A DNA stretch of 28,094 bases from an archaeon (GCA_020052935.1 JAGVOD010000108.1:1-28094); one strand, 5' to 3'; shown: positions 4,959-27,626, counted from the stretch's first letter. The notes: a model not told the origin generated them from the letters alone. Made by a program: numbers and translations.

Positions 4959-4959
4959 G

Positions 4960-4972
4960 TATAAACTAATTT
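4960..4972 (+). promoter_or_regulatory. Putative BRE/TATA-type promoter box (ATAAACTAATTTA), second copy
   Basis: Same 13-mer as at 4087-4099, here followed by tatg. It lies about 30 nt upstream of the GTG start at 5003. Confidence 0.4.
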
Positions 4973-5002
4973 ATATGTTTTGTAAAAAAGAGAGAGAAGA
5001 GA

Positions 5003-5512
5003 GTGAAGATAAAAGAGGTCTTGAAAATTCCCAGAAAAACACTCAGCGAGAAGTGTCTGCGAGAGATTCTTCCATACGGAAAAGGCTTTCTCTTTGTGGA
5101 CAGAATAAACAAGCTGTGCAAGAGAAGCGTAGAGAGCCAGAAGCATTTCCGCAAAGAAGAGCCCTACTTCCGTGAACACTTCAAGGACATACCCCTAACA
5201 CCCGGAGTATTCATAATCGAATCTGCCGCACAAACCTGCTCTGTCCTTGTCAGAAACAACATCAAAAACCAAGAGAATTATCATATACTTCTTTTCAAGA
5301 TAAAAGAAGCAACCTTCAAAAGACCGGTCTTTCCGGACACAGATATCAAGACGGCTGCCAAGATTAAAACGGTAAAAAACGGCGTTTTCACACTATCATC
5401 CGTAGTCAAATCAAAAAACGAAGAAGTGGCACGAATGACTTTCATAGTCGTTGCTGTCAAAAAAGAGGATTTCAAAAAAAGATGGGGACTCAAGACTTCT
5501 CAGCAGGAATAG
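5003..5512 (+). CDS. fabZ: FabZ/FabA-like hotdog-fold 3-hydroxyacyl thioester dehydratase
   Basis: ILPYGKGFLFVDRI matches the FabZ N-terminal ILPHRYPFLLVDR pattern. FREHFKDIPLTPGVFIIESAAQ matches the H-F-x-x-x-P-x-x-PGV-x-x-IE-x-x-AQ catalytic His/Glu block. The start is GTG. Confidence 0.8.
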   Translation: MKIKEVLKIPRKTLSEKCLREILPYGKGFLFVDRINKLCKRSVESQKHFRKEEPYFREHFKDIPLTPGVFIIESAAQTCSVLVRNNIKNQENYHILLFKIKEATFKRPVFPDTDIKTAAKIKTVKNGVFTLSSVVKSKNEEVARMTFIVVAVKKEDFKKRWGLKTSQQE

Positions 5513-6492
5513 CATCGACAGGCATGTACGTACCGCCAAAGATAGTCACTAATAAAGACATGGAGAGTATGGTCGAAACCAGCGATGCTTGGATAACTGA
5601 AAAGACAGGAATAAAAGCCCGGAGATTTGTCGAAGGTGACAAAGCCCTATCAGACATATGCATCCCTGCAGCCAGACAAGCGATAAGGATGGCAGGGATA
5701 CTAGGCAAGGATGTAGATACTATCATAGTCGGGGCGATGAGCCACGACTATCAGGGGATTCCCACTGCAAACATCCTAAAGAAAGCTCTGGGCGCCAAAG
5801 ATGCGTACACCCTGGACATCAACGTAATATGCTCAGGGTTTGTCCAGAGCCTTGACTTAGCCTGTAAACTAGTGAGAGAAGGCTCTCACAAGAATGTACT
5901 GGTCTTGAACGGCGAAGTGTTCTCCCGATACAAACACAGCAGGTTGACATCAGTCATATTCGGAGACGGCGCAGGGGCATTTATTGTCAGGAGGATGAAG
6001 AAAGGAAAAGGCCTACTATCAACATACCTAAAATCCGACGTGACGAACGCTACCAAGCTAGCGATGCTGGGCGGAGGATCAAGGTACCCCGCAACCACCC
6101 AGAACATAAACAAAGGGCTCTTCACCATACAAATGGATGGAAAGGCAATCTTCGATTTCGCGACAAAGGCATTTCCAGAAGCGATAATAGGCGCTGCGAA
6201 GAAGGCTGGAGTCGACGTTTCAGATATAGACATGGTCATATCGCACCAGGCAAACATAAGAATAATAAAAGAAGGCATGAAGCAAATAGGGCTCCCTATG
6301 TCAAAGACATATACCAACATACACAAATATGGTAACATCGGCGGCGGTTCAATTACTGTTGCACTACACGAAGCTTTAAAAAAAGGACTGATAAGACGCA
6401 ATGATCTTGTTGCCACAGTTGCTTTTGGTGCAGGCCTGTCATGGGGAGCAAATATCATGAGATGGTGCGACAAGAGGGATGTGATAAAATGA
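5482..6492 (+). CDS. fabH: KAS III-type (FabH-like) beta-ketoacyl synthase; substrate carrier (ACP or CoA) undetermined
   Basis: The N-terminus IASTGMYVPPKIVTNKDMESMVETSDAWITEKTGIKARR is FabH-like. The Cys-His-Asn triad sits in canonical contexts: DINVICSGF, VISHQANIRI and KYGNIGGGSI. The gene overlaps the fabZ-like gene by 31 nt. Confidence 0.85.
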   Translation: MGTQDFSAGIASTGMYVPPKIVTNKDMESMVETSDAWITEKTGIKARRFVEGDKALSDICIPAARQAIRMAGILGKDVDTIIVGAMSHDYQGIPTANILKKALGAKDAYTLDINVICSGFVQSLDLACKLVREGSHKNVLVLNGEVFSRYKHSRLTSVIFGDGAGAFIVRRMKKGKGLLSTYLKSDVTNATKLAMLGGGSRYPATTQNINKGLFTIQMDGKAIFDFATKAFPEAIIGAAKKAGVDVSDIDMVISHQANIRIIKEGMKQIGLPMSKTYTNIHKYGNIGGGSITVALHEALKKGLIRRNDLVATVAFGAGLSWGANIMRWCDKRDVIK

Positions 6493-7229
6493 AGCTTGTC
6501 ACGTCCGAAAACAGAAAAGACCATTTTCACATCACTCTCAACAGACCTGAAAAGCTCAATTCGCTCAACAAAGAAGTCATAGCAGACCTGCGGGACGCAT
6601 TGAAATCAGTGCCTGATGAGACAATGGTGGTCGTCCTATCCGCTGCGGGCAAATCTTTTTGCACAGGCGCGGACGTAAACAACTTCAAGATATACCCTCC
6701 GAGGGAACTGAGGTCGATCCTCAAGATGGTCTCTGGAGTATTCAACGAAATAGAGAAATCAGAAAAAATATTCATCGCAGCGATACGAGGATACTGCCTC
6801 GGAGGAGGGCTTGAACTGGCGCTCGCCTGTGACTTCATACTTGCGGGCAGAGACGCTAGATTCGGCTTTCCCGAGATAAAACTCGGGCTGATACCTGGTG
6901 TCGACGGGATAAAAAGGCTCACAAAACAGATAGGAAGAAGAAACTCGCTGCCTTTGCTTCTCACCGGAGACACAATTTCTGCAAGACAGGCAAAAGAGCT
7001 AGGACTAGTGAATGCTGTTGTAAGCAACTACAGACTGATGAGAGAAGCGGAGGCGCTTGCACAGAAAATCTCCTCGATGAATCCCGTCGCGATAAGGTCC
7101 ATAAAAAAACTCAGTTACGATGCCTCAGTCAAAGACATAAGCGAGGAAGAATTCAAAGCCGCCGAGAAGTGTCACTCTACTGAGTATGCCCAATCCAAGA
7201 TAAATGCATTCCTCAACAGGAAGCGCTGA
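6489..7229 (+). CDS. Crotonase-family enoyl-CoA hydratase/isomerase
   Basis: ITLNRPEKLNSLN, GGGLELALACDF and FPEIKLGLIPG are present, so both catalytic Glu positions are conserved. I place the start at ATG 6489, which forms an ATGA overlap with the fabH-like stop. The ORF-track Met at 6441 lies inside the fabH-like gene. Confidence 0.85.
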   Translation: MKLVTSENRKDHFHITLNRPEKLNSLNKEVIADLRDALKSVPDETMVVVLSAAGKSFCTGADVNNFKIYPPRELRSILKMVSGVFNEIEKSEKIFIAAIRGYCLGGGLELALACDFILAGRDARFGFPEIKLGLIPGVDGIKRLTKQIGRRNSLPLLLTGDTISARQAKELGLVNAVVSNYRLMREAEALAQKISSMNPVAIRSIKKLSYDASVKDISEEEFKAAEKCHSTEYAQSKINAFLNRKR

Positions 7230-7319
7230 TTATACTGATGACAAACACAGCAAGTTGAAGTAGGCATAATTTACAATTTAAATGATGATTATCTCCTGAT
7301 GGGAGAAAAGAGGTGAATC

Positions 7320-8060
7320 ATGAGGCTCCAGGGCAAGACTGCCATAATCACAGGATCTTCACGCGGGATAGGCCGGGCCATCGCCATCGAGTTCGCACGC
7401 GAAGGCTGCAACATACTCATAAACTACTCGAGCAACTACGAAGCTGCGAGACAGACAGAAGAGGAGCTCAAGAAATTTGGAGTAAGGACATACCTCTGCA
7501 AGGCAGACGTGTCAAAGTACGACGAAGCGAAAAGCATGGTCGAGCAGGCGATAGTATTCTTCGGCAAAGTAGACATACTGGTGAACAACGCGGGCATAAC
7601 GAACCCGGCACTTCTCGCCAAGATGAGCGTGGAGCAATGGCACAGCGTGCTGGATGTCGACCTCAACGGGACGTTCAACTGCACGCACGCATCGCTGAAC
7701 CACATGATATCCAACAACCAGGGGAGGATAATCAACATCTCATCCCTGTACGGCCAGACAGGCGCGTTCGGCCAGTGCAACTACGCAGCAGCAAAGTGGG
7801 GAGTGATAGGCTTCACGAAATCCCTCGCCCTGGAAGCGGCGAGAAACAACATCCTCGTCAATGCCATAGCACCGGGCGCAGTCGAGACAGACCTCATAAA
7901 ATCAGTCAGGGAAGATTTCCTCCAGAGATACATCGAGGCCAATCCCCTCAAGAGGCTGGCAAAACCAGAAGAGGTAGCCAAGGCAGCATTGTTCCTGGCG
8001 ACTGACGCGACGTACACCACAGGAGAGGTCATCTCAGTCAACGGAGGGCAACATGTTTAA
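7320..8060 (+). CDS. fabG: FabG-like short-chain dehydrogenase/reductase (3-oxoacyl thioester reductase)
   Basis: Motifs present: TGSSRGIGRAIA (cofactor-binding Gly motif), NNAGI, the catalytic Tyr and Lys in YAAAKWG, and IAPGAVETD. A Shine-Dalgarno-like GAGGTGA at 7310-7316 precedes the ATG. Confidence 0.85.
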   Translation: MRLQGKTAIITGSSRGIGRAIAIEFAREGCNILINYSSNYEAARQTEEELKKFGVRTYLCKADVSKYDEAKSMVEQAIVFFGKVDILVNNAGITNPALLAKMSVEQWHSVLDVDLNGTFNCTHASLNHMISNNQGRIINISSLYGQTGAFGQCNYAAAKWGVIGFTKSLALEAARNNILVNAIAPGAVETDLIKSVREDFLQRYIEANPLKRLAKPEEVAKAALFLATDATYTTGEVISVNGGQHV

Positions 8061-9570
8061 GATAGAACGCAAAGCGCTCCGGGAGAAGATAGCAGAATTC
8101 CTAAAGAAAGAGAGGGAACTCAAGACCATAGACAAGAGCAAGCAGCAGCCCAAGAAGCTCACAGCAAGAGAGAGGCTCGGACTTCTTCTAGACAAAGGCA
8201 CATTCACAGAGATAGACCTGTTCGCCAAGCCAAGGGATGCAGAGCTGCAACAGCTGAAGTGCGACGGAGTCGTAGCAGGATACGGCAAGATCGACGGAAG
8301 GCAGGTATGCGTCTATGCACAGGACTTCACGCAGAAAGGAGGCACACTGGGAGAGATGCATGCCAAGAAGATAGTGAAGGTCATGGACCTCGCGATAAAG
8401 ACCGGCTGCCCCATCATAGGGATAGATGACTCTGGCGGAGCAAGGATACAGGAAGGGGTCAAGGCGCTGGACGGCTACGCAAGGATATTCTACAAGAACA
8501 CAAATGCCTCGGGAGTGGTGCCGCAGATATCTATAATCCTAGGGCCATGCGCAGGAGGCGCAGTCTACTCGCCGGCGCTGACAGACTTCATATTCATGGT
8601 CAAGGGCCTAAGCAAGATGTTCATAACAGGGCCTGCAGTGATAAAGAGCACGATGTCTGAAGAGATAACACCTGAAATGCTGGGCGGGGCAGAAGTGCAC
8701 GCAGAGATGAGCGGGGTGGCGCACTTCGAAGATGAGTCAGAGCACGCAGCCATACTGAAGGTGAGAAGGCTGCTCAGCTACCTCCCATCAAACAACCTCT
8801 CAGACCCGCCGAAGTCGCAGGCCAGGGACAACCCAAACAGGCGGAATAAACGCCTGATCAAGTTGGTGCCCTCAGACCCGAAGAAGAGCTACGACGTGCG
8901 CGACGTCCTAAGAGAGGTGCTCGACAGGAACTCATTCATGGAAGTGCACGCAGGATTCGCAAAGAACATAATAGTAGGATTCGCAAGGCTGAACAGCACA
9001 ACAATAGGGGTCGTGGCGAACCAGCCCTGCGTACTGGCAGGCTGCCTAGACATAAACGCGTCAGACAAAGCAGCAAGATTCGTCAGGTTCTGCGACGCAT
9101 TCAACATACCGATAATCAACTTCGTCGACGTGCCAGGATACCTCCCTGGAAAAGAGCAGGAATACGGCGGGATAATAAGGCACGGCGCAGAGCTCCTCTA
9201 CGCATACGCAGAGGCGACAGTGCCGAAGATATCACTCATCATGCGCAAGGCATACGGCGGGGCGTACATCGTCCTCTGCTCGAGAGAGATGCGCTACGAC
9301 CAGGTCATAGCCTGGCCCACAGCAAGGATAGCAGTCATGGGCGCACGGCAGGCAGCAGAGATAATATTCAAGGACGCACCAGACAAAGAGGAAAAGACAC
9401 AGGAATATGAGGAGAAGTTCCTCAACCCCTATGTCGCAGCAGAACTCGGCAGCGTCGACATGATAATAAACCCTGCAGAGACAAGGGCGACGCTGATAAA
9501 ATCCCTGGAAGCGCTGCTGACAAAACGAGAGAGAAGATTGCCTAAGAAGCACGGCAACATACCGCTGTAG
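8053..9570 (+). CDS. pccB: Acyl-CoA carboxylase carboxyltransferase subunit (PccB / AccD-type; acetyl versus propionyl specificity undetermined)
   Basis: Motifs present: ARERLGLLLDKGTFTEID, GVVAGYGKIDGRQVCVYAQDFT..GGTLGE, DSGGARIQEG and GPCAGGAVYSPALTDF. The ATG overlaps the end of fabG by 8 nt, and GGAGGG at 8043-8048 precedes it. Confidence 0.85.
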   Translation: MFKIERKALREKIAEFLKKERELKTIDKSKQQPKKLTARERLGLLLDKGTFTEIDLFAKPRDAELQQLKCDGVVAGYGKIDGRQVCVYAQDFTQKGGTLGEMHAKKIVKVMDLAIKTGCPIIGIDDSGGARIQEGVKALDGYARIFYKNTNASGVVPQISIILGPCAGGAVYSPALTDFIFMVKGLSKMFITGPAVIKSTMSEEITPEMLGGAEVHAEMSGVAHFEDESEHAAILKVRRLLSYLPSNNLSDPPKSQARDNPNRRNKRLIKLVPSDPKKSYDVRDVLREVLDRNSFMEVHAGFAKNIIVGFARLNSTTIGVVANQPCVLAGCLDINASDKAARFVRFCDAFNIPIINFVDVPGYLPGKEQEYGGIIRHGAELLYAYAEATVPKISLIMRKAYGGAYIVLCSREMRYDQVIAWPTARIAVMGARQAAEIIFKDAPDKEEKTQEYEEKFLNPYVAAELGSVDMIINPAETRATLIKSLEALLTKRERRLPKKHGNIPL

Positions 9571-9575
9571 ATCAT

Positions 9576-9653
9576 AAAAATCCGCCGAAAGTGCCCTACT
9601 CCGCCCTAAAGGGCGGAGTTTGACTGGGCACTTTCTTTCGCTGGCGGATTTTT
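9576..9653. repeat. A5-stem-T5 nested hairpin A (possible bidirectional terminator directly after pccB)
   Basis: aaaaatccgcc-gaaagtgccc at 9576-9596 pairs with gggcactttc...ggcggattttt at 9626-9653. The inner hairpin is ctccgccc-taaa-gggcggag (9599-9618). The element ends in T5. Confidence 0.55.
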
Positions 9654-9660
9654 AGGATGC

Positions 9661-9721
9661 CAAAAATTTCGCCCTGAAGGACGGGGTTTCAAACCCGGCA
9701 CAAAATTTTGCGAAATTTTTG
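9661..9721. repeat. A5-stem-T5 hairpin B, same architecture as hairpin A with a different stem sequence
   Basis: caaaaatttcgc (9661-9672) pairs with gcgaaatttttg (9710-9721). The inner palindrome is gggtttcaaaccc (9684-9696). Confidence 0.55.
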
Positions 9722-9745
9722 TGCATGATATTGATAGACGGAATT

Positions 9746-9874
9746 GGCAGTGCCGCGCCAGGCTACGCTCGTCGTTGTTTTTCATGAAAGCAGGTCACCC
9801 CCGTAAGGGACATCCCCCCGACCTGCGTAAATAATGATGCGAAAATCGCTCCGCAAATTGGCGGCGGCACCGCC
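9746..9874 (+). repeat. Structured intergenic element, copy 1 (lacks the outermost stem)
   Basis: ggcagtgccgcgcc (9746-9759) pairs with ggcggcggcaccgcc (9860-9874). The central stem is caggtc (9791-9796) with gacctg (9820-9825), enclosing a C/G core (cccccgtaaggga cat cccccc). The blocks aggctacgctc and atgatgcgaaaatcgctccgcaaa are shared with copy 3. Confidence 0.65.
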
Positions 9875-9894
9875 TGATAACAGGATGATACTAA

Positions 9895-10347
9895 ATGAGG
9901 CTCAAGATAGACGGAAAAGAATTCTGCGTAAGCATACTGCCTGACAAGAAAGGCTACAAGGTAAGGGTAGGGAACAGGCAGATAGAGACATCGCACAGCA
10001 GCCCGCAATTCAGGGTGGGCAGGCAAAAGCACACAGCAGAAGTGAAGAAGAAGGCAGACAACACATTCAACGTAAGCATTGACCAGGACAACTACTCCGT
10101 CGAGATCCTGGACAAGGAGAAAGAGTCGTCACGGTCGATAAAAGCGCCGATGCAAGGCACAGTCATCGAGATAGACGTGAAAGAAGGCCAGGCAGTCCAG
10201 AAAGGCCAGACCATCATCAAGCTCATATCGATGAAGATGGAGAACGAGATAAAGGCAGAACGGGACTGCAGGATAAGAGAGATAAAAGTAAGGAACCGCC
10301 AGACAGTCGCGAAAGGGGAGGTGCTGATTGAGCTCGAAAAACCCTGA
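9895..10347 (+). CDS. accB: Biotin carboxyl carrier protein (biotinyl domain protein)
   Basis: The C-terminal domain is APMQGTVIEIDVKEGQAVQKGQTIIKLISMKMENEI...GEVLIELE, with the biotinyl-lysine in the MKM motif. Confidence 0.8.
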   Translation: MRLKIDGKEFCVSILPDKKGYKVRVGNRQIETSHSSPQFRVGRQKHTAEVKKKADNTFNVSIDQDNYSVEILDKEKESSRSIKAPMQGTVIEIDVKEGQAVQKGQTIIKLISMKMENEIKAERDCRIREIKVRNRQTVAKGEVLIELEKP

Positions 10348-11883
10348 AGGAAGCGTCGCGACAAGAAGATCCAGGAAGGTACTCATCGCAAACAGGGGAG
10401 AGATAGTCCTCAGGATAATAAGGGCCTGCAAAGCGCTCGGCATAAAGACAGTCGCGATATACGCCCCCGACGACAAGAACAGGCTCATAGAGAAGTCGGC
10501 AGACGAGTACGTCCGTATAGACGGAGAGAGCCTCGAATCCACATACCTAAACATAGGCAAGATAATCAAGATAGCCAAGCAAAAAAGGCAGATGCAATCC
10601 ACCCAGGATACGGCTTCCTGGCCGAGAACCCCCTCTTCGCCAGGGCGTGTGAGCAGAACAACATCACATTCATAGGACCGAGCTCGTCAGCGCTCGAAAG
10701 CACAGCAGACAAGATAGGCGCGAGAGGGATCGCACGCGGACTCGGCATGCAGATAATACCCGGCAGCGACGTGCTCAAGAGGAAAGAGGATGCGCTGCGC
10801 TTCGCAGAGAAGCAAGGCTACCCCATAATACTCAAGTCCTGCTATGGAGGAGGAGGGAAAGGCATAAGGACTGCACGCAACAAGAAAGAGCTGCTCGGCT
10901 GCTTCGACGCAGCGGCAAAAGAGGTCGAGACAAGCTTCGGCACACCCCTCATCTACGCAGAGAAATACATCAAGGCAAGACATATCGAGTTCCAGTTCAT
11001 CGCAGACAAGCATGGCAACTACGCCTGCCTCGGCGACAGGGAATGCTCTATCCAGAGACGCTTCCAGAAACTCATAGAGGAAACGCCTTCACCAGCGCTC
11101 ACCAGTAAAGAAAGGAAGAGGATATGCCATGATGTATGCGAGTTGGTAAAGAGCATAGACTATGCTGGCGTCGGCACAGCAGAATTCCTTCTCACACCAG
11201 ACAAGAAGATATACTTCCTGGAAGTCAACCCAAGGATACAGGTAGAGCACGGCATAACCGAGCTGATAACGGGGATAGACATAGCAAAAGAACAGCTGAG
11301 GATAGCGCAGGGACTGCCACTCTCATTCAACCAGGGACAAGTCAGGATAAAGGGTCACGCAATAGAGTGCCGGATCGTCGCAGAGTGCGCAAGAAGAGAC
11401 TTCGCGCCGGCAGGCGGAATCATCTCCAGACTCGAGCTCGGCCAGCCTGACAAAAACAAGCCCGACTACGTCAGGGTGGATGCTGCGCTGTATCCAGGCC
11501 TGAGGATAAACCCTTCATACGACTCGCTCCTGGCAAAGCTTATGGTGCACGGCAGGTCAAGGAAAGAAGCAGTCAAGAAACTTAGGCAGGCTCTTGCAGC
11601 CGCAAGGATAGAAGGCGTGCAGAACACCATAGACTTCTACAAGTTCCTCACCCGGCAGAAGAGATTCATCGACGGCAAGCTCAGCACAGAGTTCATCTCG
11701 GAAAACAGGCTGGTAGAGAAGTACAGCAAGGAAAGCCTCCTGCCAGAGATAGTTGCGTTGATCGCCTCAGCGATATACGAGCACGAAGCAAACCACTTGC
11801 TAAGCTTCCCAACACCAGACCGTTGGGTCGAGAGCTCCAGGAAAGAAGCTGTCGAAGCCGAGCCTGAAGAAAGATGGGGCTAG
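10328..11883 (+). pseudogene. accC: Biotin carboxylase (AccC-type) split into two frames by a 1-nt frameshift in an A6 run
   Basis: Frame 1 (10328-10675) gives KVLIANRGEIVLRIIRA...YLNIGKIIKIAKQK and then nonsense. The other frame reads (K)ADAIHPGYGFLAENPLFARACEQNNITFIGPS from 10588 and continues through GGGGKGIR, IEETPSP and EVNPRIQVEHGITE to the stop at 11883. One extra A in aaaaaa (10581-10586) would restore ...IAKQKKADAIHPGYGF.... The apparent start is TTG at 10328, overlapping the end of accB. Confidence 0.8.
10581..10587 (+). other. Frameshift site: AAAAAAG homopolymer at the accC frame junction
   Basis: Zero-frame codons are CAA AAA AGG. The homologous continuation is in the -1 frame (AAA AAG GCA GAT GCA ATC CAC CCA). 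Confidence 0.8.
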
Positions 11884-11885
11884 CA

Positions 11886-12608
11886 TCAGACGCCTTGCAC
11901 AAGGTCGCCCTCAACAACAATGATTTCACGGCCCTTGGCCCTCACTATCAACGAGCCATCTCCTGATATCCCTGCGGCAACACCCGAAACGACGCCACGC
12001 ACAGTAGTGACCCGCACCTTCTTGCCACCAGAATCCCAAAGCAGCTTCCAGTCACGCAGTATACTGCTGTAACTATCCTTTGTATAAGCATCACAGTATC
12101 TTGCGTAATACCTCAGCACATCTTTCAACAAGGATTCCTTATCTATCTCTATCCCTTTCTCTGACTTCAAGGTGGTGGCTGATGCCAAGCCGACATGATT
12201 ATTGACGTTTATGCCGATGCCGACCACGGTCGCCACACTCTTCCCAGCTACGACATTCTCAGTCAGTATGCCGCAGACCTTCCTGCCATGTATAAGGATA
12301 TCATTCGGCCACTTTATGACTGCTGGCAGGCCTTGCTCCCGGATGGCTTTCGCGACTGAAACCGCTGCAGCAAAAGTGAGCAGGAAAGTCTTTTCAGGCT
12401 TTTTGTGCTTCAGCAATACCGAGAACCACAAACCGCCACGGCCTGAGTGCCACTTCCTGTTGAACCTGCCACGCCCCTTTGTCTGGGTGTCGGCCACGAC
12501 AACCGTGCCGTGAGGCAGCTTCCTGTAGCTCCGCATAATGAACTCATTCGTAGATGCCAGAACGGCATACCGGATGGGATTGTGGAAGTTCATCATGGTG
12601 ACCTGCAA
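11886..12608 (-). CDS. birA: Biotin--protein ligase, class I (no N-terminal HTH domain)
   Basis: GRGRFNRKWHSGRGGLWFSVLL matches the GRGRxGRxWxSPxGxxL motif, and KWPNDIL is present. The ORF-track start is TTG at 12608; an ATG at 12596 (MMNFH...) is the more likely start. The stop lies 2 nt from the accC stop (convergent genes). Confidence 0.85.
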   Translation of the reverse strand: MQVTMMNFHNPIRYAVLASTNEFIMRSYRKLPHGTVVVADTQTKGRGRFNRKWHSGRGGLWFSVLLKHKKPEKTFLLTFAAAVSVAKAIREQGLPAVIKWPNDILIHGRKVCGILTENVVAGKSVATVVGIGINVNNHVGLASATTLKSEKGIEIDKESLLKDVLRYYARYCDAYTKDSYSSILRDWKLLWDSGGKKVRVTTVRGVVSGVAAGISGDGSLIVRAKGREIIVVEGDLVQGV

Positions 12609-12823: not shown

Positions 12824-13666
12824 ATGGTTCTTGAATCCTTGCTTAATCCGAGAAAGGCAGAGAAGAAGCCATGGGAACTGTTCTTCCTCGGCCTCATATA
12901 CGCGTCATTCTCATTCCTGCTCAGCTACTGGGTATTCAAGGACTACATCAGCATCGTCATGGTCGCCCTGACAGCCATGTGCGCGATGCCGCTCATATAC
13001 AACCTGTTCGCGCTGGAGGCGCAGAAAGACGACCTCCCTCAGAAAGAGTACTGGCTAATCAAGGAGCACACCAAAGCGCTCGAGGCATTCACGTTCATGT
13101 TCCTCGGCTTTGTCACAGCATACTTCCTCATATTCATACTACTGCCAAACGGCCTTTCACAGGAGGTCTTCAGCGCGCAGATCAGCACCATATCGAAGAT
13201 AAAATCAGCGACACCATCCGGAAATCTCATAGAGAGCGCAGCAGGATTCCTCCCCATACTGATGAACAACCTGAAGATACTCATATTCTGCTTCGTACTG
13301 TCATTCTTCTTCGGCGCGGGAGCCATATTCGTCCTTACCTGGAACGCATCGATAGTCGCGGTCGCAATAGGCATATTCGTAAAGAACAGCGTGCTCACGC
13401 ACATCGCACCATCACTATCGACATACTCCCAATTCGTGTCCCTCGGGCTGCTGAAGTACCTCACGCACGGCATATTCGAGATAGCCGCGTACTTTGTCGG
13501 CGCACTGGCTGGGGGGATACTTTCCATAGCAGTGATAAGGCACGAGTTCGGGACACAGGAATTCAAGAAGACAATCTTGGACTCGCTGGACATAATAGCA
13601 CTATCTATAATAATACTCTTCATCGCAGCGTTGATAGAGGTCTTTGTCACGCCAGCGATAGTCTGA
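12824..13666 (+). CDS. Polytopic membrane protein, SpoIIM/DUF95-like
   Basis: About six hydrophobic helices. NNLKILIFCFVLSFFFGAGAIFVLTWNASIV and LTHGIFEIAAYFVGALAGG resemble the conserved N...G..G and HG-x-x-E-x-x-A blocks of the SpoIIM family as I recall them. The long +/- ORFs overlapping this gene (12871..13722, 13039..13872) are shadows. Confidence 0.6.
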   Translation: MVLESLLNPRKAEKKPWELFFLGLIYASFSFLLSYWVFKDYISIVMVALTAMCAMPLIYNLFALEAQKDDLPQKEYWLIKEHTKALEAFTFMFLGFVTAYFLIFILLPNGLSQEVFSAQISTISKIKSATPSGNLIESAAGFLPILMNNLKILIFCFVLSFFFGAGAIFVLTWNASIVAVAIGIFVKNSVLTHIAPSLSTYSQFVSLGLLKYLTHGIFEIAAYFVGALAGGILSIAVIRHEFGTQEFKKTILDSLDIIALSIIILFIAALIEVFVTPAIV

Positions 13667-13695
13667 GGATACCAGTTCTGAGCAAAGGATTTGTT

Positions 13696-13922
13696 ACATA
13701 CATCGTAGGAAATAGTATATAAACACATTGACTTTTTTCTCAGTCTACACACACATTGTAAGAACAACACTATCTCTATAAAAACAAAAAAATAAACACA
13801 CATTGTAAGAAAAAGGCATTTATTCGTAACTAATGCATCGTAACACCCAGCGTAAGACGAAATAACACACATTGTAGGAATAAAAAGGAAATCTTTTTAT
13901 ATTAAAACACACAGGGTAGGAA
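13696..13922 (+). promoter_or_regulatory. Array of direct repeats, consensus AACACACATTGTA(A/G)GAA (putative operator sites)
   Basis: Copies: 13747-13764 acacacacattgtaagaa; 13795-13811 aacacacattgtaagaa; 13864-13880 aacacacattgtaggaa; 13906-13922 aacacacagggtaggaa. Degenerate copies: 13696-13711 acatacatcgtaggaa and the half-site 13721-13732 aaacacattgac. All are in the same orientation, with spacings of 47, 69 and 42 nt between the four good copies. Confidence 0.55.
13894..13907 (+). promoter_or_regulatory. Putative TATA box (tttttatattaaaa) for the HTH / giant-protein operon
   Basis: The TTTATATT core is at 13896-13903, about 35 nt upstream of GTG 13935. It is flanked upstream by repeat copy 13864-13880 and downstream by copy 13906-13922. 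Confidence 0.45.
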
Positions 13923-13934
13923 AATAGTCATTTA

Positions 13935-14411
13935 GTGCTAAAGAGGCCTCTAATATTGAGTAAGGAAGAGACAGCTGCAGCCAGCAGCACAGCGACAGCA
14001 GAGAATCCGTTCAAGCCAGACATAGTCATACCAACAACGATATTCTGCGACCGCTCACTCAGTTTTCTAGAAGCGCTTGTCGAGTACCTCAAGAGACAGC
14101 TCAACCTCTCATACCACGAGATCGCGATGCTGACCAACCGCGATGAGAGGAACATCTGGACACTGTACCACAGGGCTGAGAAGAAAAGGACAGAGCACGA
14201 GCCAGACACAAAGAAAGCGCCAGTGATGAACATACCACTAGCGGTCGTTACAGACCGTTCTGTATCGATACTTGAAGTCGTGGTAGAACACCTGCGCGAC
14301 AATACAAAACTCGCGAATCACCAGATAGCCACACTTCTGAACAGGTCAGACAAGACCATATCGACAGTATACATCCGAACAAAGAAGAAACGAACACAAA
14401 ATGCTGCGTGA
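13935..14411 (+). CDS. Small DNA-binding protein with two tandem sigma70-region-4/LuxR-like HTH repeats
   Basis: Internal duplication. Repeat 1 is DIVIPTTIFCDRSLSFLEALVEYLKRQLNLSYHEIAMLTNRDERNIWTLYHRAEKKRTE (nt 14019-14195). Repeat 2 is VMNIPLAVVTDRSVSILEVVVEHLRDNTKLANHQIATLLNRSDKTISTVYIRTKKKRTQ (nt 14223-14399). The LS-x-x-E...eIA-x-L-x-R-x-x-x-T(I/V)...(R/K)KK pattern fits region-4/GerE-type HTH. The start is GTG, and the stop TGA at 14409-14411 overlaps the ATG of the giant gene. Confidence 0.6.
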   Translation: MLKRPLILSKEETAAASSTATAENPFKPDIVIPTTIFCDRSLSFLEALVEYLKRQLNLSYHEIAMLTNRDERNIWTLYHRAEKKRTEHEPDTKKAPVMNIPLAVVTDRSVSILEVVVEHLRDNTKLANHQIATLLNRSDKTISTVYIRTKKKRTQNAA

Positions 14412-17400
14412 TGACACAATAAAGGAAAAGGAAGTAGCCATCGATAGCAGCAGCGCTGCCACGAGCACTCTCGACAGGCTGAACAAGGAAATCAGATCCG
14501 TGGCCAAGAAAGAAGAGAACAAGCTCATCGACATGCTCAAGATAACAGGACCTGCACTCGCAATAGCAGTAGTGCTACTGACAATAGGCCTGCTGGTCTT
14601 CAAGGCAGGTATAACCGGCCAGATCATAGGTGGAGGGGAATACACCACATACGTGCAGAGCATAAATGCGAACATAACAGAATCTCAGGAAAAAACCTGG
14701 GTACTGGATGCGCACCCAGAAGCATTCAACCTCAGGTCAGTAAAGATAAGCGGCCAGATGAAAGGAGAAGGCATCGCAAAAGCATACCTCATCGGCAGCA
14801 ACGGCCTCAAATACAAGATACTCGACGAGACAAAGATACAGGCAGAAGGGCTGGCGAAGATAACCGGCAGCGCAGTCAATGTGCCAGACACAGCAACACC
14901 ACCTGAAGACTCTGCTGGAAGATGGATAAAGACCTTGCTCAACTACCAGTCAGGCACCAGGTGGGACACAGACAACAACGGCATAGCCTACACCGAAGAC
15001 GGCGTCGTAGACCTGAGCGTCGCGCTGACAGAGTTCAACTGGCAGGCAGACGAAAGCAAGCTCTGCACCAAATGGGTAGTTTCATCGCAGGATAGCGGAA
15101 AAGACACCACTGTATGCAACGGCGCTGCGGACTGCTGCGGACTGGTCGGAGTTGCACCAGAGGAAGCTGCGTGGGACGAACCGCTCTATATATTCAACGG
15201 CAAATACTCTGCCACAGAGAACAACATAGTCAGGGCGCAGGTCATATTCCTCAACCAGAGCATCGGAGAAGAGACATACTTAGAGAGCACGACAGGCACT
15301 GCAGCAGAAAAGACAGTGAAGTTCATAGCGAAGCCAGTCATAGACTTCGAAGAAGTCTGCATAGACACATGCGCGCTGCCAGATGGATTAAGCAGCACAG
15401 AATACACGCTGGAGTTCGAGATAGGCGAAGGCGTGGAGATATACATAGAGAACATGACATACTCTTTAGAGGAGCTGGCAGCCCTACCTGAGAACACGAC
15501 CGCGACAGAAGAAGCCAACGTAACAGAAACAGCAAACATCACAACGAGCGATGCAGAGGGAGCCAACGTAAGCTACGAGAAGGTCAAGACAGACACCAAG
15601 TACGACGCGATAGTCGACGAGACGCTGTACGACAACTCCACAGACACCTTGATTGTGGTGTTCCACCACGACTCAGCGATACCGCTGCCCATATCAGTCA
15701 AAGGCAATGTTGAGTACACGCTCGACAGGCAGGAGAGCAGGGCAGGAGAGAACGTCACACTAACTGTCACGAACTGGAGCGATAATAGATTCAGGATAGT
15801 CGTAGGCGCGCACACAGAGGTGCTGGAGTTCGGAGAGGCCAGAAAAGTCAAGATACATCCTGAGATCAAGAACAGCAGAGGAGACAGCCAGAGGGCCAAG
15901 GTCAGGTTCGTAGACAACATACTTGATGAAACAGTTAAAGAGACCACAGAGAACGTCACCGAGACAACGATTGACGAAGGAGAATATGACCTAGAGATGA
16001 CGCTCGAGAACATGTCAGTCAAGACCATCAGGATAAATAGCGCCCAGATGTACGAAAACAGCACAGACTTCCTGAAAGTCGAGGACGTAGAGATAAACAA
16101 GATATCGGGAATCGACGCAGTCAAGTCATACGCCATAGACCCGACAGCGATAAACTTCACCAACGCGACAGTGACTGCGACTGCTACCGGAACTGCGCTG
16201 TACAAATGCAAGGAATGGAACTTCACGCTGCAGCAGTGCAACGGCACATGGACATTCCTGCAGAGCATAACGCCAGGGCAGGAGTATACGTTCACGCTGA
16301 CGCCTGAAGATCTGGGATTTGCAGAAGGAAGTCCATCAGCAGGAACACCTGATTACGGATGGATATATGATGTGAATGGCTATAATGAAGAATCCGGTAG
16401 TTATGCCAACACACAAGCAGACGACACAGCTTATTATGCAGCAGGAGAAATAAGTGCTGGTGAGTCGTTGGATTCATACATAAATCTAGAGTATAACATA
16501 ACCCAATTGAACATCTCTCCTTCACAGATAACCCGACTGCAATTCAACATAACTTATTGCCATGACGGTTCTAACTGGGCACCAGCAGCCTGCGACGGAG
16601 ATGCAGCAGAAGGAACTGTCAGCGGAGCCCAGAATGTAGAGATATACAATTGGACTTCCGGAGCCTGGACAGACATAGGAGACCTAAGGACAACTGACGG
16701 TGGCTTCACAATAACTGACAATTACAATGTAACATCAGGATTCAGCAATTATGTAAACTCAACCAACTGGATCAGAATAAGGTATGAAGCGGATTATGAT
16801 GATGGTGCTAGCCAGGATAGTTGGCTTGTTATTGACTATGCTCCTTTGACAGTTACGTACACAAATTCATCCAACTCTGTCCCGACACAAGGAACACCAA
16901 TACTCAACTCAACAACAGGAGCGAACACCACCAACGAGAACCTGACATGCTACAACCAGAGCACATACGACCCTAATGGCGACTCTGTCAAGAACATATT
17001 CAACTGGTACAAGAACTCAACAGCGATAGCCGTGCTGAACATGCCATTCGATGGCGGAAGCAACTCCACATACACGAAAGATTACTCAGGCAATAGCAAC
17101 AACGGAGCAGTCACTGGAGCCACATGGAGCAGTACCTCTGGCAGGGATGGAAAAGGAGCATACACATTCGATGGAGTCAACGACTATGTCAGCATCCCGA
17201 GCGCAGCATCCCTCAACCCGACCAGCATAACCGTGTCTGCCTGGGTAAAGACAAACAGCCTGCCCTCAACCTACCCGAGAATATTCTCGAAAGAGACGAC
17301 AACAACAGCCAACCCATACAGCATGTTCATAAGACAATCAGACAGTGTGCTGAGGTTCTGTATAGGTGACGGCTCGACAGAAGAGTGTGCAGGGACCTAC

Positions 17401-20400
17401 ATAACATCCACTGGAACCTGGCAGCATATAGTCGGCACATATGACGGCAGCACGATAAGGACATATGTCAATGGAAACCTGGATGACACCCGCGCATCCA
17501 CTATAGGCATACTCTCCAGGACAACCAACTTGCTCATAGGCAACAACCCGACCAATGCAAGGCAGTTCAACGGCACAATAGATGAGGTAAACATATACAA
17601 CAGGGCGTTGTCCGCAGCGCAGATACTCACACTATACCAGAACAGGACAGACAGGATAGTATCAAATGAGACCACTACAGGAGACGTCTGGAAGTGCGCA
17701 GTGACACCAAATGACGGGACTGTCGACGGGACGACGCTGGAATCTAACACGCTGACGATAGTGAATACGAGCAGCGGAGGCAATACCACGACAACAGCCA
17801 ACGTAACATCTACTGTCTCACAGAGCAGCGACGACGCAGAAGAGAAAACCGGAACCGGCGTCATGGACCTTGCAAGCACAGACCTCGAGCTGACTATGGA
17901 AGCGAGCGCCCAGGAAATAGGCATGAGATTCCAGAACATAAACCTCCCAAGAAGCGCAACAATAACCAACGCACATATAGAGTTCGAGATAGACGAATAC
18001 TACACAGACGCGACAAACCTCAACATATACGGCCAGGCATCAGACAATGCTGCGACCTTCTCCAGCACAGGATACGACATAACATCCAGGACGAAGACAG
18101 CAGCTTCAGTCGCGTGGAGCAGCGTATCCGCACCAGCAGTAGATGCCAAGCTGAGCACGCCGAACATCTCAGCCATAATCCAGGAGATAACCAGCAGGGC
18201 AGGATGGACTGCCAACAGCTCGCTCGTGATAATAATAAACGGAACAGGAAAGAGGACTGTGGAATCATACGATGGAGAGCCGACGGCAGCGCCGAAATTG
18301 AGGATAAACTACACAGCAGCGTCAAATACCGCACCCACGCAAGGAACGCCCTTGCTGATCTCCACGTACGGCACGAACTACACCACAGAGAACCTGACTT
18401 GCTACAACCAGTCGACATACGATGCGGATGGCGACCCTGTGAAGAGCATATTCAACTGGTACAAGAACTCAACAGCGATAGCCGTGCTGAACATGCCGTT
18501 CGAAGGAGGATCAAACGCGACTTACACCAAAGACTACAGCGGAAACAGCAATCATGGAACCGTGAGCGTAGCTACGTGGAGCAGCACCTCTGGCAGGGAT
18601 GGAAAAGGAGCATACACTTTCAACGGAAGCGCATACATAGACGCAGGAACCAGCAGCACGCTGCTGGTCGGAACACGGTTCACTCAGGAGGCTTGGATAT
18701 ACCTGACGATAACAGATGACGAGTATCACGGATTCCTAGGATATCAGCCCGCCAGCACAGAACAGAGGCCACCCTCCATCTGGGTATACCAGCGCACAAA
18801 GATACACGCAGGATTCGGCAACGGCACGACATGGGACGGATTCATAACAGGAGACATAATAACCAACAATGCATGGAACCACGTGGTCGTGACGTTCGAC
18901 GGAACCAATTATACCGTATATGTCAACGGCACTTCTAGATACAGCACAACATCCCACGCAGGAAGAGTGCCTTACGCGACGCACATCAGGAACATAGGAA
19001 GAGTTGATAACTACTTCAACGGCACCATAGATGAAGTTCGGGTGTACAACACCGCGCTCAACGCGTCACAAGTCTATTCACTGTACAGCTACGGCGCAGC
19101 AAGGATGACAAGCAGCCAGCTCACCACAGGAGATGTCTGGAAGTGCGCAGTCACGCCCAACGACGGGACTGTCGACGGGACGACGCTGGAATCTAACACG
19201 CTGACGATAAGGGCCGCGGCCGACACAACATCGCCAGGCACAATCAGCAGCCTTACTGAAAGAAGCACAGGAACGACGTGGGTATACTGGAACTGGACAA
19301 ACCCGACAGACAGCGACTTCGCGTCAGCGATAGTATACTTAAACGGGACTAACCTGGCAAACACGAGCAGTAACTACTACAACGCCACAGGACTCGCGTC
19401 ATCTACTACGTACCAGCTGACAGTCAGGACAAAAGACACAACAGGAAACGTCAACACGACAAACGTGTCCGACAACGCAGCGACACAAGACGGGACAGCA
19501 CCGCAGTACAGCAACATAAACGACCAGAACAACACCGCATACTCCACCTCGGGAAGCTACCAGTTCAACTGCACATGGACAGACAATGTCGCACTGAACC
19601 AGGTCAGGCTGGAGTTTGCCGGAACGAATTACACGCCGAGCAGCAGCGGAGACGAATATTATCACAGCATAAGCGGACTTGCAGCAGGCAACTACACATA
19701 CAAGTGGCACGCGAATGACTTTGTAGGCAATGCCAACCAGACCAGCACAAGGACGTTCACAATCAACAAGGCAGGCGTCGCGCTTACACTGACAGCAAGC
19801 CCTGCCTGGAACAATACATACGGAACACAGACATCAGTGAACTGCACTGCAAATACTTCAGTGACCACCCAGCTTTATAGGAACGGAACACAGACAAGCA
19901 AGCCAGACACGCAGACGTTGGCTGCAAGCGCCTATCTATACTTGTGCAACTTCACAGACACACAGAACCATACAGGAACAGCTCAGAACAGCACACTGAC
20001 AATAAATAAGGCAAGCTCATCGGTCACTTTGCTGCTGAACAGCACTGCTGGAAATATGAACACCACAATGCCTGCAACAATAAACATAACAGGCACCAAG
20101 ACAAGCGGCGACAGCGTTGCGATATACCTCTACAGGAACGGGACACCCATCAACTCAGGATTCTCGCCGCTGACCAATGTCTCGCTTTACAGCACAGCAG
20201 CATACTACAACATAACCGCGATATACCCTGAAAGCCAGAACTACACCTCATCAAGCGATACACACTGGCTGACCATAAGCGATACCACCTCCCCATCCAG
20301 CATATCCAACTTGGGAGAGAGCGGAGCAGGAGCCAACTGGATAAGATGGACCTGGACAAACCCGAGCGACGCAGACTTCAGCCAGGGAATAATATACCTG

Positions 20401-23400
20401 AACGGGACCAACATGGCGAATACCAGCAACAACAACTACAACGCAACAGGACTGAGCGGGTACACAAGCTACAGGCTCACAGTCCACACCAAGGACACCA
20501 CCGGCAACGTCAACAACACAGACGTGTCCGACAACGCAATGACGCTCGACACACTGCTACCGCAGTACAGCAACATACAAGACCAGAACAACACAGTATA
20601 CACATCCGGCGGGACGTACCAGTTCAACGCGACCTGGACAGACAACGTAGCAGTGAATGAAGTCAAGTTCGAGTTCAATGGCGTCAATTATACCAACCCG
20701 AGCGCAAACGGCAATGAATACTACATATCGATGAGCAACCTCGCTGCAGGAAGCTACACATACAGATGGCACGCGAACGACTTCCTCGGCAACTCGAACA
20801 GCACGCCAACGAGGACATTTGTCGTTGCGAAAGGGACTGCGACGCTCAGCCTATCAGCGACGCCAGGATGGAGCACGACCTACGGGATGCAGACAACGGT
20901 GAACTGCAGCGGAAACGCCGCGACGCAGCTCTACAGGAACGGCACGCTCGTATCGATACCGGACACCCAGACACTGGCGGCAGTCAGCCACCAGTACATA
21001 TGCAACGCCAGCGAGACGACCAACTACAGCGCGACATCAACAAACAACACGCTGACCATAAGCAAGGCAGCATCTTCACTCGAGCTGCTGTTGAACGGGA
21101 CAGACTCCGATATCATTATAGAAAAACTATCGAACGCAAACATCACCGGGACAAAGACAACCGGAGACAATGTCGCGATATACCTCTACAGGAACGGCAC
21201 GCTGATCAACTCAGGCATATCTCCACTGACAAACACGTCACAATACTCCTCTGTAGCGGCATACAACATCACAGTCACCTATACTGAGAGCCAGAACTAC
21301 ACAGCAAGCAGCCATACACACACCATATCCGTAAATGACACCACGCCGCCAGGCACTGTAAGCGGAATCGCAGAATCTAGCGCAGGAACAAGTTGGATCA
21401 CGTGGAACTGGACAAATCCTGCAGAAAGCGACTTCAGCCAGGTGATAATATACGTGAACGGGACCAATGTAGCCAATACAAGCAATAATTACTACAACGC
21501 CACAGGCCTCAACACGTATACGACATATGAGATAACGATCAACACCAAGGACACGTATGGCAATGTCAATACAAACAACGTCGCAGATACTGCAACGACA
21601 TTGGACAACACGCCTCCGACGTATTCTGGGCTCAATGACGAAAACGGCACAACATACGTGCCGATCAAGGATTACCAGTTCAACGCGACATGGACAGACA
21701 ACGTAGCAGTCGATGAAGTGAAGTTCGAATTCGACGGAGTCAACTATACCAACCCGAGCGTAACTGGCGATGAATACTACATCTCACTGAGCAACCTCGC
21801 AGCAGGAAGCCACACCTACAAGTGGCATGCGAGCGACACCGCAGGAAACTGGAACAACACTGGCACGATAAGCTTCACGATAGAGAAAGCAGCCACAGCA
21901 CTCAACATAACAGCAATACCTGGCTGGACAACAACATACGGAACACAGACGACAGTAGCCTGCTACGCAGACAACAATGAAGTGGTGGAACAGCTATACA
22001 GGAATGCAACGTCTGTAACAGCGCCAGACACCCAGACACTCGCAGGAGGAAGCTATAATTATACTTGCAGCGCGGCAGCGACGCAGAACTATTCATCGGC
22101 AGAGACCAGCGACACACTGACTGTCCAGAAGGCGACGCCAGAGATAACACTCGTGCTCAACGGAAGCGAAGAGAACATAACTATCGAGGTCGGCAGCTAC
22201 GTGAATGAGACCGGACTGCATGACCACACCTGCCTGCTCGAGATGTATGAATCAGCAATACTGGTGAAGTCAGGCAGCAGCCCGCTCACGCAACTGACGC
22301 AATACAACACCCTCGGAACATACAACGTCACATTGAGGCATCCGGAGACACAGAACTATACGAGCATCGAAGAGACACTGTGGGTGACTGTGCAGGACAC
22401 CACGGCGCCGACGGTCTCGCTCATCGCGCCAGCAGATAACGCGACAATAGGCGGCAGCACGCAGACATTCATGTTCAACTTCACAGACAACCATCACTCT
22501 ACTGCAGACTGCACGCTGTACATCAACGACACGCCCAGCGGGACGAACAGCAGCGCATCCGCGGGGACGACAATATCAATAACCAACAGCACCCTGGCTG
22601 AAGGAGAGAACAACTTGTATGTCAACTGCAGCGACGGATCCGGCAACACAGGACAGAGCGGGACAAGGACGCTGAATGTAGACAGGACGCCGCCAGACAT
22701 CGAGGAACTGATACCTGAGCAAGGAGATATCGTCGGCTATGTCACGCTGATAGACATACACTCCGCCGACTCCCTGGCAGGCGTGCACATAACCCGCTAC
22801 GAGATAAGGAACTCCTCGGGCAACGTGATAACGTCAGGGTCAAATACCACAGACGACCTGCATGAGAACTGGAACACCACAACATCCCCGGACGGGAACT
22901 ACACCATGACAGCGTACGTCAACGACACTGTCGGCAACACAGCCAATGCCTCAACAGAGTTCACGGTGAGCAACACCCTGCCGTACATACAGGTACTCGA
23001 GCCAGAGTATGACAACGAGAAGTTCAACTCGGACTTCAACCTCGACATCTGGTGCCAGGACAACAACATCGACACGTCGATGTACAACGTGACAGACAAC
23101 GTCGGAGGAGTGGTCCAGTCAGGCTTAGACGCATCCGCAAACATGACGAGCCACCACTTCACAGACCTCGTCAATGTATCATCAATCATTGACGGGAACT
23201 ACACGATAAACGTATACGCGAACGACACAACAGGCTACGTGACAACAAAGACCCGCACATTCATCATAGACAAGACCGCTCCTTCCTACTCTGCAATAGG
23301 CGAGCCTGCTGACCCAAGCACGTACTCTCCTTCGGCGAGCTACAACTTCAGCATAAACTGGACAGACAACAGGTCAGTAAGCTCGGTGGTGCTGGAATTC

Positions 23401-26694: not shown

Positions 26695-26734
26695 GAATGG
26701 AAAATCATGCTCTTAAATGCCCTACAAAGAAACG

Positions 26735-26900
26735 GGCGTTGTTGAAAAGTTCGCTCTCCGAGCGGGTGCCGTCAGGCTACGCTCTCCGTGTTTCTCAACC
26801 ATATCGCGACATCCCCGTAGGGGGCAACCCCCTGTCGCGAGCGAAGATGATGCGAGAAATCGCTCCGCAAAAGGACGGCACCACCCTTTTCAACAACGCC
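26735..26900 (+). repeat. Structured intergenic element, copy 3 (166 nt, best-preserved)
   Basis: Three nested stems. The outer 15-bp perfect inverted repeat is ggcgttgttgaaaag (26735-26749) with cttttcaacaacgcc (26886-26900). The second stem is ggtgccgtc (26765-26773) with gacggcacc (26874-26882). The central stem is cgcgaca (26805-26811) with tgtcgcg (26833-26839), enclosing tccccgtagggggcaaccccc. Confidence 0.7.
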
Positions 26901-26948
26901 AAATGCACGAAAACATTTTTATACTATCACTCACTGGAGGTGTAGATA

Positions 26949-27623: not shown

Positions 27624-27626
27624 AAC

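Follow-up and report, generated by a model that had tools for sequence, protein, structure and literature searches.

The archaeal contig examined here (GCA_020052935.1 JAGVOD010000108.1:1-28094, the whole of which, 28,094 nucleotides (nt), is referred to as the window) contains a gene for a small protein built of two helix-turn-helix (HTH) units, with a gene for a giant protein directly behind it and an array of short direct repeats in front. The array occupies an A + T-rich control region (13667-13934, no strand assigned), which extends for 268 bp from the stop codon of a gene for a SpoIIM-family membrane protein (12824-13666) to a GTG at 13935; its GC content is 0.31 compared with 0.506 for the window, and the equivalent spacer in relatives bears the same motif array. 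Repeats, small protein and giant gene together make up what is probably a self-contained regulatory system, in which the protein would read the repeats upstream of its own operon.

Six same-strand copies of the motif ACAYACAtwGTARGA lie within the spacer, along with one truncated remnant, in agreement with the four good and two degenerate copies of uniform orientation described in the initial annotation. A search of the window for AACACACATTGTARGAA, allowing up to three mismatches, gives five matches, all on the plus strand, at 13695, 13748, 13795, 13864 and 13906, and nowhere else; shuffled sequence yields 0.13 matches on average, and none of 100 shuffles reaches five. Read from the SpoIIM side, all on the plus strand, copy 1 (ACATACATCGTAGGA, 13696-13710, 25.4 bits against the position matrix) is a distal copy without a TATA box and is followed by the remnant AAACACATTGAC (13721-13732, repeat family D5, read from the sequence), which comes after a GTATATAA box. 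Copies 2 (ACACACATTGTAAGA, 13749-13763, 24.3 bits) and 3 (ACACACATTGTAAGA, 13796-13810, 27.4 bits) are likewise distal, the latter with a CTATAAA box 20 nt upstream, and copy 4 is the degenerate sixth member of the set (ACACCCAGCGTAAGA, 13843-13857, repeat family D3, 14.9 bits). Copy 5 (ACACACATTGTAGGA, 13865-13879, 27.4 bits) ends 17 nt upstream of a TATA box, TTTATATT (13897-13904, plus strand), itself preceded by a purine-rich stretch resembling a B recognition element (BRE), and copy 6 (ACACACAGGGTAGGA, 13907-13921, 24.2 bits), the proximal and putative operator copy, starts 3 nt after that box. The cores of copies 5 and 6 thus flank the box just where repeats at 13864-13880 and 13906-13922 had been reported. 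From archaeal promoter geometry, transcription is predicted to start at about 13924-13928, which would place copy 6 between the TATA box and the start. Copy spacings of 21-100 nt show no clear 10.5-nt periodicity in a check for helical phasing, and a search of the spacer against Rfam returned no family, so that a known RNA element is not the explanation for the array.

The consensus of 53 strict copies, (T/A)ACAYACAT(A/T)GTARGA(A/T), has two information-rich blocks, ACAYACAT and GTARGA, with a free position between them. When both strands of 181.5 kb of related archaeal loci were scanned with the matrix at a threshold of 12 bits (the weakest seed site scores 18.5 bits), 58 matches were obtained in 13 loci, every one of them on the plus strand and at most 450 nt upstream of an HTH start; the one further match lies on the opposite strand inside the array of locus L126. 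Pairs of copies 15-45 nt apart occur at 36 loci of the metagenome collection, six directly upstream of an HTH homolog and the remaining 30 in ACAC-type mini- or microsatellites of non-coding, eukaryote-like DNA. An exact 16-mer scan of the genome collection gave, among the matches listed, mostly single chance matches in unrelated bacteria, and only one of those listed (L083) stands in a promoter context, where it precedes an HTH homolog; the other archaeal matches inspected each consist of one copy that falls within coding DNA or at its end. Because matrix matches and non-satellite pairs are confined to regions upstream of HTH genes, the motif does not behave as a dispersed repeat, and the initial worry that the 17-mer might be generic repetitive DNA falls away on these counts.

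The small HTH protein has many relatives. A word-indexed search found 59 homologs, mostly of about 150 amino acids (aa), the few organism-named ones belonging to Candidatus Woesearchaeota, and an exhaustive search with a profile brought up 2176 clusters (50% identity) at E <= 0.001, of which 1955 have E <= 1e-10; to judge from these searches, the tandem-HTH proteins are a large family that has no Pfam or NCBIfam model of its own. Fifteen further distinct loci, on Woesearchaeota-like contigs, were read (L120, L121, L123, L125, L126, L083, L133, L140, L144, L145, L146, L151 and L164-L166). A large gene lies directly 3' of the HTH gene wherever the contig is long enough (up to 2725 aa complete), and the two genes overlap by 4-41 nt in all nine relative loci that have gene calls. 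The large proteins are homologous to the giant protein of the window, their N-terminal 355 residues being 38-53% identical and repeat modules common, with very unequal lengths. The SpoIIM gene is kept upstream in eight further distinct loci (nine were fetched, L123 and L124 carrying the same gene), giving a stable order of SpoIIM gene, array, HTH gene and giant gene, and chromosomal housekeeping synteny (biotin ligase, acetyl-CoA carboxylase genes, SpoIIM) is retained as well.

All of these loci carry the motif upstream of the HTH gene, on the coding strand save in L164, and sequence between the copies is not conserved. The motif persists despite this divergence of the spacers down to 39-45% protein identity (L126, L140 and L164-L166); L164, which at 39% identity holds the most distant free-type homolog, has a repeated element, TACGTAGATAGTARGA, at 560-800 in which only the 3' half is canonical. 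The co-occurrence of HTH module, motif and giant gene is strict and deep. A CRISPR-like array or iterons were considered and rejected on the irregular spacing, the lack of cas or rep genes and the constant position before one operon. Iterons of a plasmid or viral origin in particular are ruled out by the retained chromosomal synteny and by the absence of any Rep, transposase or integrase domain in Pfam and NCBIfam searches.

Several peculiarities of single loci deserve mention. L083 comes from a contig (CAYQPU010000014.1) labelled as a Methanosarcinales metagenome-assembled genome (MAG) and encodes a 50%-identical HTH homolog with one perfect motif copy after a TATA-like box; either this is a binning error or the module is present outside DPANN. 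In L125 (1159-3723 on the minus strand and 13078-14676 on the plus strand) the array sits in a divergent spacer common to the HTH gene and an 854-aa S_layer_C-domain gene, and a second giant paralog of 3111 aa with the same N-terminal domain is found 8 kb downstream on the same strand, without an array of its own. Two unrelated loci (L121 7468-8088 and L126 3612-4394) have a gene for a rhomboid-family intramembrane protease in the neighbourhood of the operon, at a distance of 2-6 kb; this may be coincidence, though the membrane-tethered HTH tails of relatives lend it some interest.

Comparison of the loci separates two classes of motif copy. Distal copies have no TATA box and are 21-67 nt apart, and proximal copies follow a near-consensus TATA box (TTTATAT or TTTAAAT) that is itself preceded by a purine-rich stretch. 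In nearly all of the 22 TATA-linked copies, from 11 loci, the motif starts 11-14 nt after the first T of the box. Since archaeal TATA boxes are centred near -26/-27, the motif would span approximately -20 to -3, a region that RNA polymerase must occupy. Most close relatives have two such TATA-motif modules 55-61 nt apart, and L125 has four. The window has one; the sequence on its downstream side, GTAGGAaaatagtc, corresponds to that of module 1 in L123, and it is apparently module 2 that has been lost. In L121 (9790-9950) a 43-bp unit of TATA box and motif, with nearly identical flanks, is repeated in tandem three to four times, a pattern that indicates a recent change in the copy number of the promoter module; such changes might tune or switch expression.

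The open reading frame that follows the array (13935-14411, plus strand) would encode the 158-aa protein of the initial annotation if translated from GTG 13935. The true start is more likely TTG 13956 (13956-14411, 151 aa), because the closest homologs are of about 151 aa and a Shine-Dalgarno-like AAAGAGG (13940-13946, plus strand) lies 9 nt upstream of it; the same AAAGAGG is found in the same place in L125, L145, L146 and L151. The length first given is accordingly doubtful, and the two-unit structure proposed with it holds: the units, which span about 14022-14195 (unit 1) and about 14226-14405 (unit 2), can be aligned over 61 residues with 44% identity (E = 5e-19). An AlphaFold2 model built from 22 homologs (predicted local distance difference test 85.7, predicted template modelling score 0.75) has residues 1-23 disordered and then two units, in each of which a strand and a short helix lead into three helices. 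The best local matches found by Foldseek are sigma region 4 domains, namely those of SigR, SigE and SigW (on -35 DNA), SigC and SigD, with target TM-scores of 0.65-0.82, root-mean-square deviations of 0.6-2.6 Å (for the best of them 0.6-2.1 Å over 46-54 residues) and probabilities of 0.98-1.0. Precomputed matches to the Pfam model Sigma70_r4_2 (PF08281) exist for many homologs, marked faint in the gene contexts, and the sole NCBIfam matches are of the sigma region 4 type, to the C-terminal ends (last 30-50 positions) of extracytoplasmic function (ECF) sigma models. An HTH fold, about which a doubt had originally been entered, is therefore supported by two modelled three-helix units, by sigma region 4 as their structural neighbour and by a Pfam match near its cut-off. 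As to the two profiles initially suggested, the sigma region 4 model does match, at 24.8 bits and so below its cut-off, and GerE does not.

Other assignments for the protein fared less well. No GerE match was obtained in Pfam at E <= 0.1, and NCBIfam returned a 15-bit partial match to NarP against a cut-off of 343; a receiver domain is lacking as well, and the label 'NarL/FixJ response regulator' used by JGI is thus unsupported. Membership in the sigma-factor family is unsupported because no Sigma70_r2 match was found in Pfam or NCBIfam and the host is an archaeon. A search of PDB sequences with the family profile found no relative, only marginal HTH matches to 3op9 (E = 0.028) and Rna15, and EnfR (8hnp), an archaeal factor matched by Foldseek, shares local HTH resemblance only. 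The protein has no hydrophobic segment at either length and so falls outside the class of membrane-tethered factors. Its two units have different recognition helices, RDERNIWTLY and RSDKT(I/V)STVY, which are near-invariant within the clade that has the canonical motif.

The giant gene (14401-26694, plus strand) encodes 4097 aa with an N-terminal transmembrane helix, Laminin_G_3 and Ig-like domains, three C-terminal hydrophobic segments (residues 3757-3774, 3786-3806 and 3826-3846, approximately; window 25669-26694 corresponds to residues 3757-4097) and a Lys/Pro/Ala-rich tail of 250 aa, which, given this layout, should be cytoplasmic. From its domain content the protein would be an adhesin. 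As first noted, it overlaps the stop codon of the HTH gene: its ATG is at 14401 and the TGA at 14409-14411, an overlap of 11 nt (14401-14411, plus strand) within ATGCTGCGTGA, and the conservation of such overlaps among relatives suggests that the two genes are translationally coupled. Three small genes follow (26691-28094), encoding 84 aa, 224 aa and 155 aa, the last running to the end of the window. None of the three products belongs to a Pfam or NCBIfam family; counterparts of the 224- and 155-aa proteins occupy the same position in L120 (45% and 58% identity), and the 155-aa protein is also found in L121. A search with the 224-aa protein for more of the source genome yielded no more than a duplicate contig of 2.5 kb. 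The three products may have accessory roles in the system of the giant protein.

The separate HTH gene is one of two architectures. The profile matches also include proteins of 1000-5900 aa that carry HTH units at their extreme C-terminus, and in the fused examples read, the sequence directly ahead of the units consists of a short hydrophobic segment and a polybasic stretch (for example GSWTIRIFTIALTLRRKRKKKQQKQLNIPLSIF). These HTH units should be cytoplasmic, because an N-terminal transmembrane helix is also present. A search with one fused protein, P0061, found 201 relatives, those named by organism coming from Pace-, Nano- and Woesearchaeota MAGs; 76 of the 129 proteins of at least 900 aa carry two or four HTH units, the last ending no more than 16 residues from the C-terminus. 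The tail of the giant protein in the window has no HTH unit, and it is at this position that the fused relatives have theirs. The four units of P0061 and P0096 are a duplicated pair in which a resembles c and b resembles d. Several 300-370-aa 'proteins' are four-unit forms as well, and at least one of them, P0065, is a C-terminal fragment of a fusion.

The surroundings were read for two of the fused genes, L167 and L168 (the latter from a Pacearchaeota MAG; protein P0213, four units). Each has upstream exactly two copies of the motif, ATACACACATAGTAAGT and a near copy, 33-34 nt apart, one just 5' and the other just 3' of a TTTATAAG box, and no other copy in 13-16 kb. This is the layout of the window, in which the TATA box likewise has a copy to either side; HTH module, motif and giant gene are thus kept together as a triad in different DPANN lineages and in both gene architectures. 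Between the end of the second copy and the ATG there is 1 nt, an arrangement that points to a leaderless mRNA. In the four-unit proteins examined (P0061, P0096 and P0213), four units face two sites, a ratio that would fit one HTH pair per site.

Taken together, these observations support the interpretation offered in the initial annotation, of a dedicated, autoregulated two-headed protein reading the array at the giant gene, and they allow it to be made more specific. It seems probable that the small protein is an autoregulated single-chain factor that reads the motif array and represses its own operon. It would be a dedicated, 'pseudo-dimeric' transcription factor whose two non-identical sigma-region-4-like units read the halves of one asymmetric 15-16 bp site, the half-sites ACAYACAT and GTARGA having centres about 9-10 bp, or roughly one helical turn, apart. 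The earlier suggestion that two units per chain suit direct repeats is modified to this extent: the pair of units is real, and it probably reads a single asymmetric site and not two neighbouring repeats. The sites would be arranged head-to-tail upstream of the factor's own operon. Occupancy of the site between TATA box and start would block recruitment of RNA polymerase and so repress the HTH and giant genes together, distal copies would add cooperative loading, and the overlapping stop and start codons would tie output of the giant protein to that of its regulator. That the HTH protein binds the motif, that each site takes one pair, which sign the regulation has and where transcription starts are all inferred. 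Repression is favoured because the site sits beside a strong TATA box: as a general rule given in PMC5512572, repression is the usual effect of archaeal factors with sites at the promoter or downstream of it, and activators accompany weak TATA or BRE elements. The TATA boxes at these loci are near consensus.

A number of points weigh against this reading. The Sigma70_r4_2 match of the protein itself reaches 24.8 bits against a gathering threshold of 25.7 and covers unit 1 only, and the whole-query E-values of the Foldseek matches are weak (0.2-1.1, all above 0.03), a consequence of the shortness of the domain. Among the few divergent loci, no clean co-variation of recognition helices with variants of the motif was seen. 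In L164 the motif is reversed and lies upstream of the HTH gene's TATA box, facing a divergent gene, so the promoter position is not universal. Confinement of the motif was judged on the window, which is essentially the whole contig, on the loci of relatives and on the sequence collections. Since HTH module and giant gene always occur together, co-occurrence does not tell a motif of the HTH protein from one that is read by another factor serving the giant gene, and uniform orientation together with a fixed TATA offset would also fit a positive, promoter-specific co-factor.

The last point leads to an alternative that keeps the same protein and sites and reverses the sign, making the protein an activator, or a promoter-specific initiation co-factor beside TBP/TFB, that is needed to fire the very long operon; the surface protein could then be switched on and off through positive autoregulation. 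With orientation uniform and spacing fixed, activation is a serious alternative, if in our estimate an unlikely one. In 15 of 16 free-type loci all copies point in the direction of transcription, the offset from TATA box to motif is held at 11-14 nt while the spacer sequence varies, and the protein has the fold of sigma region 4, which serves in promoter recognition. Set against this, the TATA boxes come close to consensus and are preceded by purine-rich, BRE-like stretches, whereas activators usually go with weak elements; a 15-bp site filling the gap between TATA box and start is the classic position of a repressor; and the host is an archaeon, a group not known to have sigma factors, its HTH protein having neither a sigma region 2 nor an RNA polymerase-binding part.

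It is less probable still that the motif is read by another factor or by a specialised TBP/TFB paralog, or serves as an unusual core-promoter or initiator element peculiar to the promoters of giant genes, with the HTH protein having some other role such as binding the cytoplasmic tail of the giant protein or other DNA. Such a reader would account for the lack of clear co-variation between protein and motif and for the many copies that lie within complete TATA-plus-motif modules, and as HTH module and giant gene are never found apart, the motif could belong to the latter. Distal copies have no TATA box, however, and the motif occurs at no other promoter in 181 kb of flanking genes; moreover, the HTH protein is the sole recognisable DNA-binding protein of the conserved gene set, and the match of four fused units to two sites fits direct reading by HTH units. 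The idea that the repeats have no regulatory role, being either remnants that tandem duplication left behind neutrally in an A + T-rich spacer or part of an iteron-like or mobile element, can practically be dismissed. It could draw on the recent tandem duplication of the 43-bp unit in L121 and on a single JGI record calling one homolog an 'IS30 family transposase', and it is already contradicted by the conservation of the motif while spacers diverge (39-70% protein identity, both gene architectures), by the stable synteny from SpoIIM gene through array and HTH gene to giant gene, and by the absence of a transposase or Rep domain and of an Rfam family.

A further and tentative step, on balance doubtful, would be to regard HTH module and giant surface protein as one signalling device, a contact- or load-sensing transmembrane one-component switch in episymbiotic archaea. 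The module would dock on, or be sequestered by, the 250-aa tail of the giant protein in the manner of an anti-sigma factor, and the state of the ectodomain (amount in the membrane, host contact, cleavage) would be relayed to the protein's own promoter. In many DPANN lineages the module would be part of the cytoplasmic tail, and in the clade of Woesearchaeota it would have become a separate, co-translated protein.

Elsewhere on the contig, the region at 4125-12608 contains genes for an alpha/beta hydrolase, KAS III (FabH-like), an enoyl-CoA hydratase, a short-chain dehydrogenase (FabG-like), a carboxyltransferase, a biotin carboxyl carrier and a biotin carboxylase, with a biotin protein ligase on the minus strand. 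DPANN organisms are usually described as lacking lipid and fatty-acid biosynthesis, so a run of fatty-acid and acetyl-CoA-carboxylase-type genes is unexpected on an apparent DPANN (Woesearchaeota-like) contig. Further upstream, on the minus strand (337-4074), is a 1245-aa open reading frame without a Pfam match, the exact sequence of which was not found in the assembly collection.

DPANN archaea are thought to rely on physical attachment to their hosts, and giant surface proteins are prime candidates for making that contact. We know of nothing on how the genes for such proteins are controlled in DPANN archaea, and of almost no DPANN transcription factor with a known site. The locus offers a protein family that numbers about 2,000 clusters (at 50% identity), together with the 16-bp site that it probably recognises and the gene that it probably targets; the site is kept in both gene architectures and on contigs assigned to Woese- and Pacearchaeota. 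In the fused versions a giant extracellular protein has a DNA-binding module tied to it, which is rare, and the system as a whole is a putative natural example of a single-chain tandem HTH protein reading asymmetric direct repeats.

Among known systems, the closest in fold is region 4 of sigma-70 (the -35-binding sigma4 of the ECF type, PF08281), on solved examples of which the modelled three-helix units of the window protein superpose. The window protein differs in its archaeal host (archaea, to our knowledge, have no sigma factors), in lacking region 2, in having two tandem units per chain (four in some relatives) and in the extra strand and short helix, with the signature 'IP..IF.DR.LS.LE', that precede each unit. 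In the position of its putative site, within the gap from TATA box to predicted start, the system would resemble the archaeal promoter-overlapping repressors (Bell 2005, Peeters 2013 and Karr 2014, as cited in PMC5512572), and as in those systems the gene of the putative regulator lies within the operon that it would regulate, which implies autoregulation. Unlike the usual archaeal repressors, it has another fold, a single-chain hetero-pair of HTH units in place of a homodimer on a palindrome, a long direct-repeat array and loci with duplicated promoter modules.

EarA, the regulator of the euryarchaeal archaellum, is likewise dedicated to a surface-structure operon and has several short same-orientation repeats near the BRE and TATA box; its sites, TACATA and A(C/G)(C/G)TACA(T/C), have a core that resembles ACAYACA, a likeness drawn from published site architecture. 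The EarA sites are, however, 6-8 bp long, upstream of the BRE and activating, and EarA is mostly not encoded in its operon. ToxR and CadC are bacterial membrane-tethered one-component transcription factors. Like these, and like ArnR and ArnR1 of Sulfolobus, which control surface structures (PMC6396743), the Pace- and Nanoarchaeota relatives unite HTH units and a membrane anchor in one chain, and their HTH units would have to reach the promoter from the membrane. Unlike ArnR and ArnR1, these relatives have the module at the C-terminus of a 1000-5900-aa surface protein, and its apparent target is that protein's own promoter; the window protein differs from all membrane-tethered factors in being soluble and separate. 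In the literature searched, neither the family nor any DPANN fusion of a giant protein with HTH units is described. A tandem sigma4-like pair in one chain, an array of direct repeats in which promoter modules are duplicated, and a link to giant surface proteins are not united in any of the systems compared here, and it is this combination that appears to be new.

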